From: Neodothiora populina
Taxonomy: Eukaryota
NCBI RefSeq assembly: GCF_041146345.1
Contig: NW_027191419.1
Span: forward strand, 186,001 to 250,000
Length of the DNA: 64,000 nucleotides
Reading direction: 5' to 3'
Shown here piece by piece: positions 5,239-12,808 of this stretch (position 1 is the first letter of the stretch; each line of letters begins with the position of its first letter). The notes under the pieces are model-generated. The model saw only the letters and a list, made by a program, of their open reading frames with translations, was not told where the DNA came from and did no database searches. The position numbers and the translations under genes are program-made.

Positions 5239-5889
5239 AAGATGACTACAGACTACTGTGAGATGGATGGTACGAGCATTATACCCGGGGCAAAGGCGTT
5301 GTTCGATTGGTTAGGACTGCACACATGCATAAATACGGCACAACTTAGGGCGGTGCACAAGAGATATAGCCATAAACTTGCTTCTTGGTACCTGGATACC
5401 GATCACGCAATGCGCTACCTGTTCTCGGTGGTAACTTCCGTGAAATTTAAGGCTCGCAAATCTGGGTGATCGAGGCGATCATCACACGCCATCGATGGTC
5501 GATTCCCGTTGAGCACAGCGCAGTCTTTGTACTCTTACGGTTTCCTTTCTACTGGTACGAGTGGATTAGCTTCCACAAGAACAGGATTGGGGCATTTCTG
5601 TGACGCCTTCTCTACCACCAACACTGATCCAGGCCCTGACGACCCCGCATACGTCATGACCAGCATCATCATCATTATCACACAATTCACTGAGCTCCAC
5701 ACGGACACGGAGGGTCGAGATGGAACAGGAAAACATCACTTATCTTCTGGTAGATATCCCAATTGCTTCCTGCTCGATTTGCCATTTGCAACTTTGATAT
5801 CTGTTACTATCTGACCTTCACCAATACACACATCCCGTCAACCAATTCCAAGTTTCCTTCAAGACAATCTCTCCTGCAATACTTTGAAA

Positions 5890-7586
5890 ATGGAGACTAT
5901 CAGAAATGCAGCCAACGCGGCCGCCAGCTACGTTGGTTACGACACCAACGAGCGAGAAGTTGCTGGTGAACAGCTAGGCGAGCTGGTCTCTGACAGACAG
6001 AGAGACGGCACTGTCGGCACCGAGCCCATCTCTGGCCAGCTCGGATCCGGTAGTGCTGGTCAGCCTTACGATGCTGGAAATGTCGAAGGTACATATTATG
6101 CTATATATGGAAAATATATGACAGATGATTAACAAGACCCTCAGATCTCGGTGCTGCATCTTCATCCACTGGACATCAGCACGGACTTGGCAACACCGTT
6201 GGCTCAAGCACTGGAACCAACTCTGTCCCTGCAGGATACGAGAGCACCTCGGGATATGGCAACAACACTGGATCCCAACCCAGCACCAGCCGCGGCATTG
6301 GAGCCGACGCTACCCAGCAAGGCAACCACTACACCACAACCACCACTGCTGGCAAATTACCTGGATCCACTGGCATCGATGCCACTCGCGAAGTCGGAAA
6401 CTTGTCTGGCACCACTCACAGTGATCGCAATTCTACTTACAGCCAGGGCAGCACTTCCTCGGGAGGTAACCGCTCTCATCTCCACGGTCAAGCATTCGGC
6501 TCTGACCGCAACTTTGGACAATCGGGCGACAGATATCTCTTCGACGGCAACACTGCCCCCGGCTCTGGTGGCCGTCGTTCGCACAACGTCGACGACTTCA
6601 CTGACGACAACATTCACAATGAAGGCTCAGGGCACAAGATCATCAGTGAGCTAGGCTCGGATGCAGGCTCTGGCAAGGCCGGACCTGGTGCCGGTAACAC
6701 CGGTGTCAGCGGCGTTGCATCAGGCCTTGGTCAAGGCAAGGAGAGCGAGAGGAGCAGAAAGCCTGGCTTCGGACGTCAAGCTTCGGGCTTGGGATCGGGC
6801 TCGTATGGTCTGAACTCGGGTAAGCCGAGAGAGAGCCTCGGCCACCAGGCTGAGCGTAAAGTCGAAGAGTACGCCGCTCCTGCTGGACTTGCCGGTGCAG
6901 GTGCATATGGAGCCAGCCACTCTGGCAAGGAGCCGCTTTCCGGCGTCAGAGGCTCCGGCGTCGCAGGAGAGCCCTACGATCAGGGCAACGTCCATGATGG
7001 TGCCGCCGCAAGTCAGCTGAACCGTGGCACTGGCCTCGATGACGAGACATACAGCTCTAGCACTGGTAGACCACACGAAAGTCTAGGCCAGAAGACCGAG
7101 CGCAAGGTTGAGGAATACGCCGCACCCGCTGGCGTTGCTGGAGCCGGCGCGTACGGCGCCAACCAATCTAGAGCGAACGACAGCCAGGTCTCGCAAGCGA
7201 CATCTGGCATGGGCGGCCTGAGCTTGAACGAGAGACAACGTGGACACGACGGAGCTTACGACGTGACTAACGCCGGACCTTATGGCTCAGAGAGCAACAC
7301 CACCGGCGGCATCCCCTTCCCTGGCTCGTCCACTACCGGCCACAGTACCACCACCAGCGGCTTCCGTGGTCACGGCAGTTCGGGCTCGGGACTCGGCGCA
7401 GGCGGTCTCGAGGAGAGAATCGCCGGTGCCCCAGTCCCTGGACACGAGGGTGATGAGGAGTGTGTCGATGGCCACCATAACACGCACCCGTCAGGCGAGC
7501 GGGCTCATGAGGATAGAACCCACAAGCCCACCTTCTTGGACTACCAGCACGACAAGTTTGGCGTTCCTGTCGCCAGGGGCGATTAG
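5890..7586 (+). CDS. Gly/Ser-rich hydrophilin-like repeat protein, 2 exons
   Basis: ATG at 5890; intron ~6089-6144 (GTACAT..CAG) joins in frame to ORF 6402-7586. Has a duplicated EPxSGxxGSGxAGxPYDxGN motif and duplicated ESLGxxxERKVEEYAAPAGxAGAGAYGA. Codon usage is strongly biased. Confidence 0.8.
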
Positions 7587-8046
7587 ATATTCTTCTTTCC
7601 TTTCTATTTCTTTCCTGACGACGATGGACGGCTGAAAGTATTGATGGATGGACGGGGTATGATTGTCGAAATGAAGACGATGCTATGAGTTTTTTTCTTC
7701 CCCTTCAGGTTTAGCAGTTCTCATGACTTTAGGCAACGATATGAAAACGAATCTTCTTTTTAGTTCTACACACGTGTGTCTTATTGATTATGTTCTTTCC
7801 TACGCTGCTATGTGATGTAGAAGTAAATCTGGTGCATTCGATTTTTGCCATGTAATGCACTATACCCGTTATCATCCCACAATTGCTCACGAACTAGGAA
7901 CGATGTCTGTAAGCAGATGGTACATTTGGGAGACATGATCAATCCCTCCTGGTTACCCCTGTGTATATTCATCATCATCATCATCATCATCATCTCCATG
8001 CATAGCGAGAAACGAATGCCGCGACTAATGAACCCCAATTTCACCT

Positions 8047-9498
8047 CTACGCACCCCGAACGCTCTCCACAAACTCACCAACCGCACGACCCACGACGTC
8101 CGCAGCCTCCTCAGCAAGATAATGCCCAACACCGCCACCGACGCCCCTCGCCTGCACCTCGACGCCCTCCCCAACCCACTCCTTCCAGATCCGCCCGACA
8201 TCGCCATGCATCTTACCCAACTTTCCCAAACTCCACATGACGAGCAGCGGCACAGCGATCTTCTGGCCCCTGTCCTGCTCGTCCCTCTGCTCCTGCGGCT
8301 CAGGATGCACGGCAGCGGAGTAATCGGCCACGGCGCCCTCGATGTACTCTTTCTTCGCGTGCAGAGCCTCGTAGAGCTCCCACGCCGAGTCGGATTGACA
8401 TGCCGCGACGGCGGAGGCGTCCGGGCCAGACGTGTTGGATAGTAGGGAATGCGCGAATCTGTCGCCGCCGTAGGCGAGCAGCATGGGGATCGCGGGCGGG
8501 GAGGTCAGGAAGGCCCAGTGGTAGTATTTGGAACTGACTGTGGGCGAAGTGAAGGATTGCCATTGGGTTAGGGTGGGTACGATGTCTAGGAGTATGAGGC
8601 CTAGGAGGGAGAAGGTGTAGAGGTCGGAGGGAGGAGATGAAGCTGAAGACGAGGAAGGGCTTCCGGCGTGGGTCACGGCTATGCGGTGGCAGAGGCGCGC
8701 GCCGCGGTCGTGGCCACCTAGGATTATGGGTCGTGAGGGGAAGAGGGCGTGCGAGGTTTCCAGGAGAGCGGCGGCTACGGCGCTGCGGGATGGGTCTTTT
8801 GATGGCGTGCTTATGCCGTAGCCTGGGAGCTTTTTGTTGGGGTTTAGTTCTCGTGCTACTGCCGTGTGGTCTATGGAATGCTTGGGCTTCGGGTGTAGAG
8901 CGGAGAGTGAAGAAGTGGTGTCAGATGTGGTTATTGATGTGCAGAAATGAAAATGGAAACATTCGAGAATCGATGGATCTCGGAATCAAAGTCGGGGAAG
9001 CATTGCGAGCAAAGCGATATGCCACCGTCTGACTGATAGGCTAAGGTATCTTTGACCGAGTCCTTTTCACAAAGAGGTGGCAAGACAAGACGTATAACTC
9101 ATGTATGAAATCGAAGGCATCGAGGCAACATCAAGCAGCACAAGTGACGCGCTTTCACTTACCTCGGGAATAAAAAGAGAAATCTTGTCTTTCAGCATAG
9201 GCACGATCTACAAGAAACATGAGCGACGAGACAAACAACCAAAAGGCGTCTTGCAACGCACATGGCGAAAGCTACCGGCTCGGTCAGTTGCATGAATCTA
9301 ACGACGAGAAAACATGAACGTTTACATGTATGCAGATTGCGGGTAGCCATGGACGAGCCACAGAACGGGACCTTTGCCCAGGTCATGACTGTAGCTCACG
9401 ACATTGGAACCAGAAGTCGTCGAAGTGGTCTTGCGAATGAGGAAGGGGTGGATATTGGTGATGTCTACCGTGTCACAGATTGCTGGACTTGAAGTCAT
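8047..9498 (-). CDS. Alpha/beta-hydrolase, haloacetate/fluoroacetate dehalogenase-like, 4 exons (~336 aa)
   Basis: Exons 9498-9326, 9271-9262, 9207-9163 and 8829-8047 total 1011 nt in frame. Motifs HGYPQ, PELPGYG, GHDRGAR, LDIVPT, YYHWAFL, ADY and GHYLAEE. Confidence 0.88.
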
Positions 9499-10055
9499 CG
9501 TCAAGGATGGACGGGGAGATCAACGAGATGAGTATCGTGGGAGAGATTCTTGACTATGGTATATGGAAACGAAGCAGTTTTGTATACAGTAATTGAAGTC
9601 ACGATACTTCCTGACCTGATTGGCTACCTAGGAGGTAAAGTAATGGATATTCCCTTACTGAACTGTACGCTTTGTACAGCAGTAGGAAGGCTGTGTTATT
9701 ATGCTGACGTCGTGCCCCCGCATTTGCATGATTGATCTGTATCAGGTAGTCCATGACACAAACAGACAGACACATGGAGGAGAGAAAGAAAAGCCAAGCT
9801 TTGCCGACAAGCTTTTACCACGATTTCCGGATTAGCAGACAAAACGGGGGCGACACACGGGGCATGGGGTGTGCAGTAAGATATCAGTAGGATTCGAACA
9901 CCGGCGCCGCGTGGACGTTAGGTTCACTTAGGCTCAGTTCCGGCGGTCTTGTCAGTCTTGTCAGTCAGGGCGAAGGCGGGCCAGATGCTGGCAGATTGGC
10001 TTGGGACTCTGGCAGTTCTTATGCGGGTTTTGTGGCTTTGACTTTGTTTGACTTT

Positions 10056-10074
10056 GGGGGGGGGGGGGGGGGGG
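10056..10074. repeat. Poly-G homopolymer (G19)
   Basis: Directly visible, in the divergent intergenic region between the hydrolase and palH. Confidence 0.95.
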
Positions 10075-10501
10075 AGAGTCTCAGTCCGTTCCTTCCCAGA
10101 GCACAACCACGACTGCCTCAGACTGTGCTGCAATCTACAACCTGCAATCTGCAATCTGCAACTTCTCCTCACTCTGACAGCCGCAGCCCACAGCCCACCT
10201 CTCCGCATCTTCTAATCACAATCACAACCATCACCGCTACCCGTTATATCGTCACTGTCGCCAACACTCGCGTATCTCGACGACTCCGACGACGGCTCGA
10301 CTGGCAACATTCGCCATGGTCTCGCTGATGAAGAGACGACACACCCGACCCTCGTAGACGCATGTGTGTGCGCGCCGCCCGTCACCACCATCACTACTGC
10401 CCATCATATCGCCACTGTCGCCGACACTCGATCAAGGCACTTGCCATATTTGTCCATACCTTCCCGCGTCGGATTAGCCAGAATTACTGCGACGGTCGGG
10501 C

Positions 10502-12808
10502 ATGTCGCCTGCCGTCCTGGAGCCGCGTCAGTTGTGGGATCTCCCAACAACGGCAGCCAATGCAGCCACTCCTGTATGTCTTTCCTTGTTTTTAGTAGAG
10601 TCTTGCAAGAGGAGCAGACAACAGACATGGTTTCTGACAAACAACCCACAGAGCTGCACACCCTTTACCCTTCCTTCCGGCGGCGTCATCAGCTATGCCC
10701 ACGACCACATTGTCACTCTGACCGCCAACCTGGTCTTCCAACCGCAATGTACCAGTGGCTACCACTATCCTGGCCAGACCGATCCTTCCAGTGTCGCCGA
10801 CCTGCAGGAGCCCTTCTACTCGTCGACCATCCCACAGACCTACGTCGTTGCCACCACCACCGTCCTCGCCTGGGTGCTCGTTGTCATGTTGGTCATCAAT
10901 CCGCGCTCGTTCTACATGGGCGGTATAGGGACCAACTTTGCCAGCGGTCGCGGTCTGATAGGCGGCGCCACCGGAGCAGGCTCTGGGCCAGGCGTGGGTT
11001 CGCGACCGTGGTTGCAGAAGGTCGCTACCCTGGCTGTCGCCGTGTCCATGACCATCGCCACCGCCGACACCTTCAAAGTCGCCGAGGCCCAGTACTGGAG
11101 AGGATACATGGACGCCAATGCCATGCGCGCTCGCGTCGAGGGAAGCATGGAGATCCGTGTCGTTCGCGTCATCTCCGATATCTTTCTCTGGCTCGCCCAG
11201 GTCCAGACTTTGATCCGCCTGTTTCCACGCCACAAGGAAAAGGTATTGATCAAATGGATCGGATTCGCTCTGATCATTCTCGATACCACCTTCTCTTGTT
11301 TGAACAGCTTCATGGTCGACAACATCACTCGGCCGCGCAATTTCGTCGATGCCATTCCGGCCCTGAGCTATCTGTTTGAGCTCGCCGTTGGACTTTTGTA
11401 CGCTGCATGGGTCATTTTCTACGGCATCACCAAGAGACGCTATGCATACTATCATCGCCGCATGAGGAACATCTGTGTTGTAGCCCTCTTGTCACACGTC
11501 GCTATCCTCACCCCGGTCGTCTTCTTCGTCACCGACGTCTCGGAGCCCGACGTCGCCGCCTGGGGTGACTACTTTCGCTGGGTCGGTTCTGCCGCCGCCA
11601 GTGTCGTCGTGTGGGAGTGGGTCGAGAGGATCGAGGCTCTGGAGAGAGACGAGAAGAAAGACGGCATCTTGGGCCGGGAGATCTTTGATGGCGATGAGAT
11701 GCTGGATTTCACTCCTGCTGAGGAGATGACCTATACTCGCAAACCGCGGGACGACTATCGCCCCCTCAGTCGCGCCGGGGACGACAAGGCCAAGGTGCCC
11801 AAGCAACACATCCGCGGACTCTCGTTGCGCCGCCGATTCGACCAGGAGAGACCCCGGAGGACCCATTTCCCGCTGGGTAGAACGCACACAAACCCCATAG
11901 AACAGAGGTCCATAACCTTCGGAGACCTTCCTCGTCCACCCGCAGCGGCGGCAGTGTCGACCACTGCCTCTCCCTCAGCCGTCACCCAACCCACCCCACC
12001 GCCACCTCGAGTCATATCCCCACCCAGTCGAGCAGACACGACGAGCGCGGCCTCTACAGTATATGTTGTGAACTATGATGGCCAGCCCGACGTACCACAG
12101 CCGGTGCGGAGAATCAACCCGGAACCTCGTGATCAAGCGCCACCAGATGAGCGACGGACTTCGGAGGGGACTGAGATGCGCAAATCTTGCCAAGGTGGTC
12201 AGTCACGATGGCAGCACGTGCCCCATCCATTCAAGCGCAAACGCATGACGCCGCCAGCCGAAATTCGGGCAGCGACAGAGACAACAGCCTCGACAACTGC
12301 GCATACATTTCCCCGATGGCACGTTACCGCACGACTCGGTGCCTTTGCTGCCGAGCAAGGGGAACGCTTCCGCGAACGAAGAGCAGAAAGGAGGGAGACT
12401 GCAGAAAATGACGAAAGTTCTTGGACAGTCATTCCCGCTCAACCCCGAGGGGCTGCGGCCTGGAGTCCGAGTGTATTGGAGAAGGAACAGGCCAAAAGCA
12501 AGGACGCCAGCCAGCCCTCGACTCGTCTGAGCTCGGAAGGCACGACGGCAGCGCGTGACTTTGGCGCAACCGAGTCCGAACCGCGGGACTCGGAGGGGAG
12601 CAGGCAGCTGACGTGGAGCGACACGACAGCGGCATCGAGCGCAAGGCCGCAGACCGAGGGTGCTGCCGTCAGGCCGGCCACAGGCGCTGCCGAATCGAAC
12701 ACTGCTTCCGATGAAAGCAGTGGCGAGAGCAATAGCAGCAACAATCACAACAGACCTGGCTCTCCAGCACATACATCCAGAGCAGGCCCTCCCAGCATGG
12801 AGACGTGA
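10502..12808 (+). CDS. palH: Ambient pH-sensing 7-TM receptor PalH/Rim21
   Basis: 768-aa ORF containing a predicted 78-nt in-frame intron (10574-10651). Motifs CTPFTLPS, DLQEPFYSST, WLQKVA, LAQVQTLIRLFPRHKEK and VWEWVERIEALE, followed by a long disordered cytosolic tail. Confidence 0.95.
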   Translation: MSPAVLEPRQLWDLPTTAANAATPVCLSLFLVESCKRSRQQTWFLTNNPQSCTPFTLPSGGVISYAHDHIVTLTANLVFQPQCTSGYHYPGQTDPSSVADLQEPFYSSTIPQTYVVATTTVLAWVLVVMLVINPRSFYMGGIGTNFASGRGLIGGATGAGSGPGVGSRPWLQKVATLAVAVSMTIATADTFKVAEAQYWRGYMDANAMRARVEGSMEIRVVRVISDIFLWLAQVQTLIRLFPRHKEKVLIKWIGFALIILDTTFSCLNSFMVDNITRPRNFVDAIPALSYLFELAVGLLYAAWVIFYGITKRRYAYYHRRMRNICVVALLSHVAILTPVVFFVTDVSEPDVAAWGDYFRWVGSAAASVVVWEWVERIEALERDEKKDGILGREIFDGDEMLDFTPAEEMTYTRKPRDDYRPLSRAGDDKAKVPKQHIRGLSLRRRFDQERPRRTHFPLGRTHTNPIEQRSITFGDLPRPPAAAAVSTTASPSAVTQPTPPPPRVISPPSRADTTSAASTVYVVNYDGQPDVPQPVRRINPEPRDQAPPDERRTSEGTEMRKSCQGGQSRWQHVPHPFKRKRMTPPAEIRAATETTASTTAHTFPRWHVTARLGAFAAEQGERFRERRAERRETAENDESSWTVIPAQPRGAAAWSPSVLEKEQAKSKDASQPSTRLSSEGTTAARDFGATESEPRDSEGSRQLTWSDTTAASSARPQTEGAAVRPATGAAESNTASDESSGESNSSNNHNRPGSPAHTSRAGPPSMET

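Follow-up and report, generated by a model that had tools for sequence, protein, structure and literature searches.

A four-exon gene of Neodothiora populina encodes a putative member of the fluoroacetate dehalogenase family with a threonine at the gate position

Gene structure at the locus

The window, i.e. the whole 64,000-nucleotide stretch of Neodothiora populina DNA analysed here, carries on its minus strand a four-exon hydrolase gene (9498-8047), the exons of which join into 1011 nt that encode 336 amino acids and end in one terminal stop. It lies head-to-head with a divergently oriented neighbour, the gene for PalH/RIM21. The features are as follows.

10478..12808, plus strand: PalH/RIM21, the divergent neighbour
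9326..9498, minus strand: exon 1, 173 nt, with the start codon and the first strands
9351-9337, minus strand: HGYPQ oxyanion loop, in exon 1
9272..9325, minus strand: intron 1, 54 nt, GT..AG, with a branch-like site at about 9288
9262..9271, minus strand: exon 2, a micro-exon of 10 nt, reading through as I-F-R-H
9208..9261, minus strand: intron 2, 54 nt, GT..AG
9163..9207, minus strand: exon 3, 45 nt, with an internal Met at 9198
8830..9162, minus strand: intron 3, 333 nt, GT..AG, with an AAG acceptor
8047..8829, minus strand: exon 4, 783 nt including the stop, carrying the nucleophile through the base

A spliced gene of about this size had been proposed from the DNA letters alone (here called the original prediction), and this proposal is borne out by an intact reading frame, by GT..AG borders at all three introns and by the recurrence of intron positions in related loci. 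A GT or GC donor occurs at the position of intron 1 in 18 of the 25 metagenome loci examined, eight of the 25 also have the 10-nt exon 2 between AG and GT, and the corresponding region reads IFRH or IWRH in spliced homologues. Intron 3 sits at the identical codon boundary in 8/28 loci, four of these eight sharing the unusual AAG acceptor. The segment encoded by exon 1 is present in full-length homologues and is 72% identical to residues 5-58 of the closest of them, P0002 (tblastn). Two in-frame acceptors within intron 3, at 8887 and 8881, were rejected, since they would add 17-19 residues that are missing from the deposited protein P0001 as well as from homologues.

P0001, an entry from Neodothiora populina labelled hypothetical protein, is the best database match (100% identical over a 260-aa query). 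As deposited it has 272 aa, shares intron 3, begins at the internal Met at 9198 and misses exons 1 and 2; it therefore is without the HGYPQ loop. Judged by sequence, the four-exon model of 336 aa is better than this 272-aa model, and recognizing the deposited one as truncated is a practical correction. Many short homologues in the databases (230-290 aa) may carry the same 5' truncation. The gene is single-copy: apart from both main exons, a search of the genome returned a single weak and unrelated match, to a second alpha/beta-hydrolase (G000:C7:10773-11054, L003; E 2e-4, 32% across some 90 residues).

Catalytic residues and fold

The positions discussed below all lie in exon 4.

8709, minus strand: D117, nucleophile
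8706 and 8697, minus strand: R118 and R121, carboxylate clamp
8586, minus strand: D158, acid
8565, minus strand: Q165, at the site of Y141
8520 and 8517, minus strand: H180 and W181
8433, minus strand: T209, gate position
8322, minus strand: Y246
8124, minus strand: H312, base

The original prediction had matched the protein by eye to the fluoroacetate dehalogenase (FAcD) RPA1163. All seven motifs that it named lie in frame, and alignment reproduces its residue mapping at each of the eight catalytic and halide-pocket positions: D110, R111, R114, D134, H155, W156, Y219 and H280 of RPA1163 correspond to the identical residues D117, R118, R121, D158, H180, W181, Y246 and H312 (counted along the printed alignment with a chain offset of 2). 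Thus, the Asp-His-Asp triad (D110, H280 and D134 of RPA1163) is present as D117, H312 and D158, the carboxylate clamp R111/R114 as R118 and R121 and the halide pocket H155/W156/Y219, by sequence, as H180, W181 and Y246. An identical mapping was obtained against DehH1 from plasmid pUO1, with a numbering that agrees with the available text of PMC12955510, and the roles of the eight residues are taken from the corresponding portions of PMC11022551 and PMC13403318.

These residues are strongly conserved. All eight are identical in 116/116 full-span homologues out of 119 close ones, W181 is invariant in all 119, and in the wider clade the eight are kept in 38-40 of 40 rows, with the first clamp Arg in 40/40 and the second in 38/40 of the aligned rows. 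Elbows that seemed to lack the arginines in some relatives were mostly pattern artefacts of an N-terminal motif; the alignment keeps the arginines. The final open frame alone matches RPA1163 at E 4e-19 and the family profile reaches E 1e-45, so that chance falls far short of explaining the motif match. With this profile, built from 61 homologues, 22 sequences of the FAcD group score at E 1e-45 to 8e-26, whereas the first Cif or epoxide hydrolase appears only at 2e-16. Among the NCBIfam families, scanned with six proteins, none scored above its cut-off, the best being the haloalkane dehalogenase equivalog, at 54 bits where 241 are required.

An important question is whether such a residue set separates an FAcD from an epoxide hydrolase, as had been claimed for DRxxR together with HW..Y. 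The window protein has the HGYP motif, H180 and Y246. H180 and Y246 presumably coincide in position with the His and Tyr of Cif, in which the two arginines are not known to occur. The DRxxR clamp, which is missing from 5/6 outgroup hydrolases, and the Trp after His do discriminate, but the His and Tyr alone do not, because Cif-like epoxide hydrolases employ just such a pair (PMC8244358). One could therefore picture an epoxy-acid hydrolase, in which the triad would open an epoxide beside a carboxylate (glycidate- or epoxysuccinate-like) without useful halide release, with H180 and Y246 opening the ring in the manner of Cif while the two arginines hold the carboxylate. We regard this as rather unlikely. 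The invariant Trp, which available parts of PMC11022551 tie to defluorination in FA1, and the rarity of DRxxR among the outgroup hydrolases speak against it. Epoxide hydrolase is, however, the automatic name of certain fungal clade-II homologues, Cif-like enzymes follow next in structural similarity (see below), and the retention of the clade across Ascomycota in housekeeping neighbourhoods would suit a common metabolite better than a rare plant toxin.

Structural comparison places the protein in the same family. The predicted model of P0002 (pLDDT 93.7) fits FAcD structures at Z 36.5-39.2 with an rmsd of 1.6-1.9 A, including DAR3835 at Z 39.2 (1.6 A over 287 residues) and RPA1163, against which modelling had been suggested as a check, at Z 38.9 (1.8 A over 293 residues, a global fit). 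For the window's own product, the model was that of the 272-aa rather than the 336-aa form. Among 48,161 representatives it fits Alr0039 best (Z 27.6, 1.7 A, 235 residues), followed by Cfl1 (Z 23.9) and Cif (23.4), Cif-like entries as a whole reaching Z 21.9-23.9. An alpha/beta-hydrolase core with an FAcD-type cap is thus seen in the predicted models by global fit, and by structure as well as by sequence the FAcD group ranks above the Cif-like enzymes. The fold places the family; it does not fix the activity, because PA2086, annotated as a probable epoxide hydrolase, and 4NVR, a putative acyltransferase, reach Z 37.7-38.1 with the P0002 model, roughly the values of the FAcDs.

Gate position, Y141 site and divergence of the window protein

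Of the FAcD features tested, the only one that the window protein does not share is the gate Trp, typical of fast members (Trp185 in RPA1163, W180 in DehH1), which is replaced by T209. This loss escaped the original prediction and is more telling than the change that it did point out, i.e. Gln at the site of Y141. This Gln is indeed there, but it is not diagnostic: 118/119 close homologues also have Gln there, DehH1, FA1 and Alr0039 have Met, and DAR3835 has Thr. Because active FAcDs vary at this position, the Gln marks the clade and does not signify a loss, and as a mark of altered function it is ruled out.

The gate Trp is found in 14/14 deep members of the clade, among them Saitoella, Ascobolus, Cadophora and Atractiella, and in 0/26 members of the inner subclade that holds the window gene. 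Of the 119 closest homologues, 87 carry Ile at the gate site, 22 Leu and one Trp, and 110 have an Arg one residue earlier, where the window protein has Asn. What such a loss entails is enzyme-dependent. According to the available text of PMC12955510, selections on fluoropropionate almost exclusively retained Trp180 of DehH1, as did 6/6 colonies on fluoroacetate. For RPA1163, the accessible part of PMC13328661 describes W185T and W185N as more active on "conventional substrates" and as having lost 2-fluorophenylpropionate turnover, whereas W185G gained on a bulkier acid. The same source reports two natural FAcDs with an Arg gate, and Arg-gate bacterial FAcDs that still turn over fluoro-acids. 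DeHa4, which we equated with structure 9C9F by matching residue numbers and which in this structure has Arg at the gate position, defluorinates fluoroacetate with a kcat of 0.77 per hour as compared with 6.7 per minute for RPA1163 (available text of PMC11223199). Since Arg-gate members are still classed as FAcDs in the text seen of PMC13328661, a missing Trp lowers the expected rate and leaves membership untouched; slow turnover of fluoroacetate combined with a roomier pocket would be the likeliest outcome. Every testable sequence and fold feature of FAcDs is found here except this Trp, which is itself not universal, and on sequence grounds the gene is a new member of the known FAcD family with a putative activity.

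The window protein has also diverged within its own clade. It departs from the clade at 10 of 89 near-invariant columns (79/89 matched, with a median of 98%), only 4/73 homologues match these columns as poorly, and its end branch is 0.27 long as compared with 0.12 for its sister. Together with the loss of the Arg beside the gate and the deposited 272-aa model, this could indicate a copy under relaxed selection, or one made only in the 272-aa form without the oxyanion loop, which would be weak or inactive. However, the open frame, the canonical donors and the conserved intron positions, the retention of all eight core residues and an exon 1 that is still so similar to that of the closest homologue make this very improbable.

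Distribution and descent

The first search returned 1827 proteins at E 0.001 or better out of 5128 candidates, and the named entries among the best 120 of these 1827 were all fungal. That similar fungal homologues probably exist had been anticipated, and they turn out to be common across Ascomycota: named members come from Dothideomycetes, Chaetothyriales, Sordariomycetes (Neurospora, Gaeumannomyces and Diaporthe), Leotiomycetes, Pezizomycetes and Saitoella; the basidiomycete Atractiella branches as sister. Because the clade spans Ascomycota, the gene is not special to Neodothiora populina; it is one ordinary member among many fungal genes, some of which are already auto-annotated as dehalogenases. 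A Cadophora member has been named putative fluoroacetate dehalogenase, and an Atlas cluster, 94% eukaryotic, haloacetate dehalogenase family. Some homologues are longer (P0282 with 608 aa, P0173 with 544 aa); in P0282, from the basidiomycete yeast Pseudohyphozyma, the profile matches two stretches, which may point to a tandem or fusion protein.

Identity to the best bacterial matches reaches 35% at most. A 133-row tree, in which 27 of 79 bacterial loci and 77 of 143 new representatives were retained by length and motif and unnamed rows were taken as bacterial without verification, places the window gene in a clade of 40 rows (SH-aLRT 97), the deep branching of which tracks fungal classification. 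This fungal clade is nested in a 123-row group with DehH1 (SH-aLRT 99), apart from clade II, and its membership in the clade of characterised FAcDs is found again in a 45-row tree (99.8). As the deep branching follows fungal classification, the data would fit old vertical inheritance within fungi. A phylogeny with bacterial FAcDs had been proposed for detecting ancient horizontal transfer; it was built, and an AU test on the 45 rows rejected no topology (p 0.63, 0.40, 0.49 and 0.21, with 5000 replicates, fewer than recommended), including those with the clade forced outside all bacterial FAcDs (p 0.49) or with both fungal clades joined (p 0.40). Recent horizontal transfer into Neodothiora populina was discarded, as it runs against the conserved introns, the synteny with PalH and the nesting among Dothideomycetes.

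Genomic neighbourhood

PalH stands head-to-head with the hydrolase gene in three of 28 related loci (L086, L089 and L097). Further neighbours in the window are Mvp1, which adjoins the hydrolase in 1/28 related loci, and a Bre4-like transporter; in other loci the hydrolase is found beside Sof1, kinesin, thiolase and similar genes. A Sof1-like WD40 gene upstream of the hydrolase, with a Sof1 domain in L099, L101, L103 and L119 and a similar WD40 frame in L112, represents a second conserved neighbourhood besides that with PalH. The neighbours are housekeeping genes. No catabolic cluster was seen in the window (12 frames scanned), and no catabolic partner recurred in 18 related loci, of whose 127 long frames 52 were scanned. 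Only one of 73 homologues has a PTS1-like end, so peroxisomal targeting is not supported; the protein is probably cytosolic.

Some other features of the surrounding DNA may be recorded. On the plus strand, 6129-7586 is a 485-codon open frame that runs towards the hydrolase gene, is rich in Gly, Ser and Thr, contains internal repeats and matches no Pfam family over the cut-off. A run of CAT trinucleotides lies just beyond the hydrolase stop codon (7970-7998), and a poly-G run lies in the spacer between the hydrolase and PalH (10055-10076).

In L097, which has PalH on the other side, a FEX-type fluoride exporter with two CRCB domains lies directly downstream of the hydrolase (5437-7356, minus strand). 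This adjacency, noticed after the fact, is seen in 1/18 loci, and in the Neodothiora populina genome FEX is on another contig. On pUO1, crcB lies 1.2 kb from dehH1, and the two arrangements count as no more than a hint.

Such a hint raises the question of whether the protein could be an efficient dedicated FAcD, serving detoxification or assimilation, in the family behind the fungal activity on record. The accessible part of a review (PMC5485738) describes isolates of Fusarium, Aspergillus and Penicillium that degrade fluoroacetate and, citing Walker and Lien 1981, a haloacetate halidohydrolase of F. solani of 62 kDa native mass, with a pH range of 7-8 and its gene not determined. The full catalytic set would agree with this, as would the native mass, which would fit a dimer of subunits of about 33-36 kDa. 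We nevertheless consider a dedicated FAcD quite improbable: the gate Trp is lost, the FEX adjacency is single and post hoc, a second fungal clade would qualify equally well, and no Fusarium, Aspergillus or Penicillium entry stands among the named matches listed in the homologue searches (three lists, best 120 each, from which absence of the family in Fusarium does not follow).

The original prediction had further held that the characterised defluorinases known to it are bacterial. This stands in so far as the literature searched, i.e. main texts with few subscription journals among them, yielded no fungal FAcD that had been cloned or characterised, but it needs qualifying by the F. solani activity, recorded without a sequence. 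Eukaryotic FAcDs are not mentioned in the available portions of PMC11777429, PMC11139923 and bioRxiv 2025.07.23.666183, and neither 'fung' nor 'eukary' occurs in a word search of the available text of bioRxiv 2026.10.11.758284. As far as their accessible text goes, mining studies were restricted to bacteria (PMC13403318; bioRxiv 2025.07.23.666183; bioRxiv 2026.10.11.758284); the supplementary sequence tables of PMC13328661, PMC12955510 and PMC11708051 could include fungal members.

Proposed function

Overall, with the gene model, the presence and conservation of the residues and the fold as its observed basis, we lean, with modest confidence, towards a hydrolase of the FAcD family that would be capable of acting on 2-halo acids, would be slow on fluoroacetate and would have another acid as its native substrate. 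In the reaction that we infer, R118 and R121 would hold the substrate carboxylate, D117 would attack the alpha-carbon to form an ester, H180, W181 and Y246 would stabilise the leaving group, and H312 with D158 would activate a water molecule, so that a 2-hydroxy acid is released. Given Thr in place of the gate Trp (Ile or Leu in relatives), a more open pocket is probable. The predicted behaviour in vitro would thus be halide release from 2-halo acids together with slow defluorination of fluoroacetate. In the cell, a larger carboxylate with a substituent at the alpha position, e.g. a natural chlorinated acid, is the more likely substrate, although this is a guess. Against the reading as a whole stands the low identity to DehH1, only 67/285 columns.

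A bolder reading, by analogy, would make the ascomycete clade the gene family behind fungal C-F hydrolysis and the Trp-less subclade a wide-pocket defluorinase for bulkier alpha-fluoro or alpha-chloro acids, a natural counterpart of the engineered RPA1163 variants W185T and W185G. We think this unlikely; if it were true, no earlier eukaryotic hydrolytic defluorinase with a defined sequence would precede it in the literature searched. More generally, if active, the clade would supply a gene for the fungal defluorinating activity reported in 1981 as well as a large eukaryotic reservoir of FAcD scaffolds in which the gate is open by nature. The value of the find is that an old open question becomes testable, and the Neurospora crassa orthologue makes the real substrate of the family accessible to genetics.

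Comparison with known systems

With the bacterial FAcDs (EC 3.8.1.3: RPA1163, 3R3U; DAR3835, 8SDC; NOS0089/Alr0039, 3QYJ; FAc-DEX FA1, 1Y37; DehH1 of pUO1) the window protein shares the fold, the Asp-His-Asp triad, the DRxxR clamp and the His/Trp/Tyr halide pocket, while being only about 24-28% identical to the characterised enzymes. In contrast to these, its gene is eukaryotic, spliced and without catabolic gene context, and the protein has a Thr gate, Gln at the Y141 site and a Ser-rich insertion after the nucleophile helix. The Cif-like enzymes (Cif, 3KD2; Cfl1, 7JQX; Cfl2, 7JQZ; aCif, 4MEA) have the Asp-nucleophile fold and the His-Tyr pair in common with it, yet they fit less well both in structure (Z 21.9-23.9 versus 27.6) and in the profile search (E about 1e-16 versus 1e-45).

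The F. solani halidohydrolase, as described in the available text of PMC5485738, is likewise fungal and has a native mass compatible with a dimer of the FAcD family. It comes without gene or sequence, and with no Fusarium homologue among the named matches listed, no link is drawn.

The second fungal FAcD-like clade (P0249, P0325-P0443), with members from Leotiomycetes, Botryosphaeriales and lichen fungi, among them Rutstroemia, Botryotinia and Lasiodiplodia, has the same core residues, and many of its entries are auto-named haloacetate dehalogenase. It is, however, separate and well supported, with Met at the Y141 site in 112/113 members and the pocket His replaced by Trp in 15/113. Two entries from the liverwort Calypogeia fissa also fall into this clade.

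The Arg-gate FAcDs (DeHa4 of Delftia acidovorans D4B, AUM69528 and WP_011546367) resemble the window protein in combining the full catalytic set with the absence of a gate Trp. These enzymes are bacterial and carry Arg at the gate itself, whereas in the fungal subclade this site is Ile, Leu or Thr and the residue before it is usually Arg; and while the activity of DeHa4 has been measured and is slow, that of the fungal enzymes is putative.
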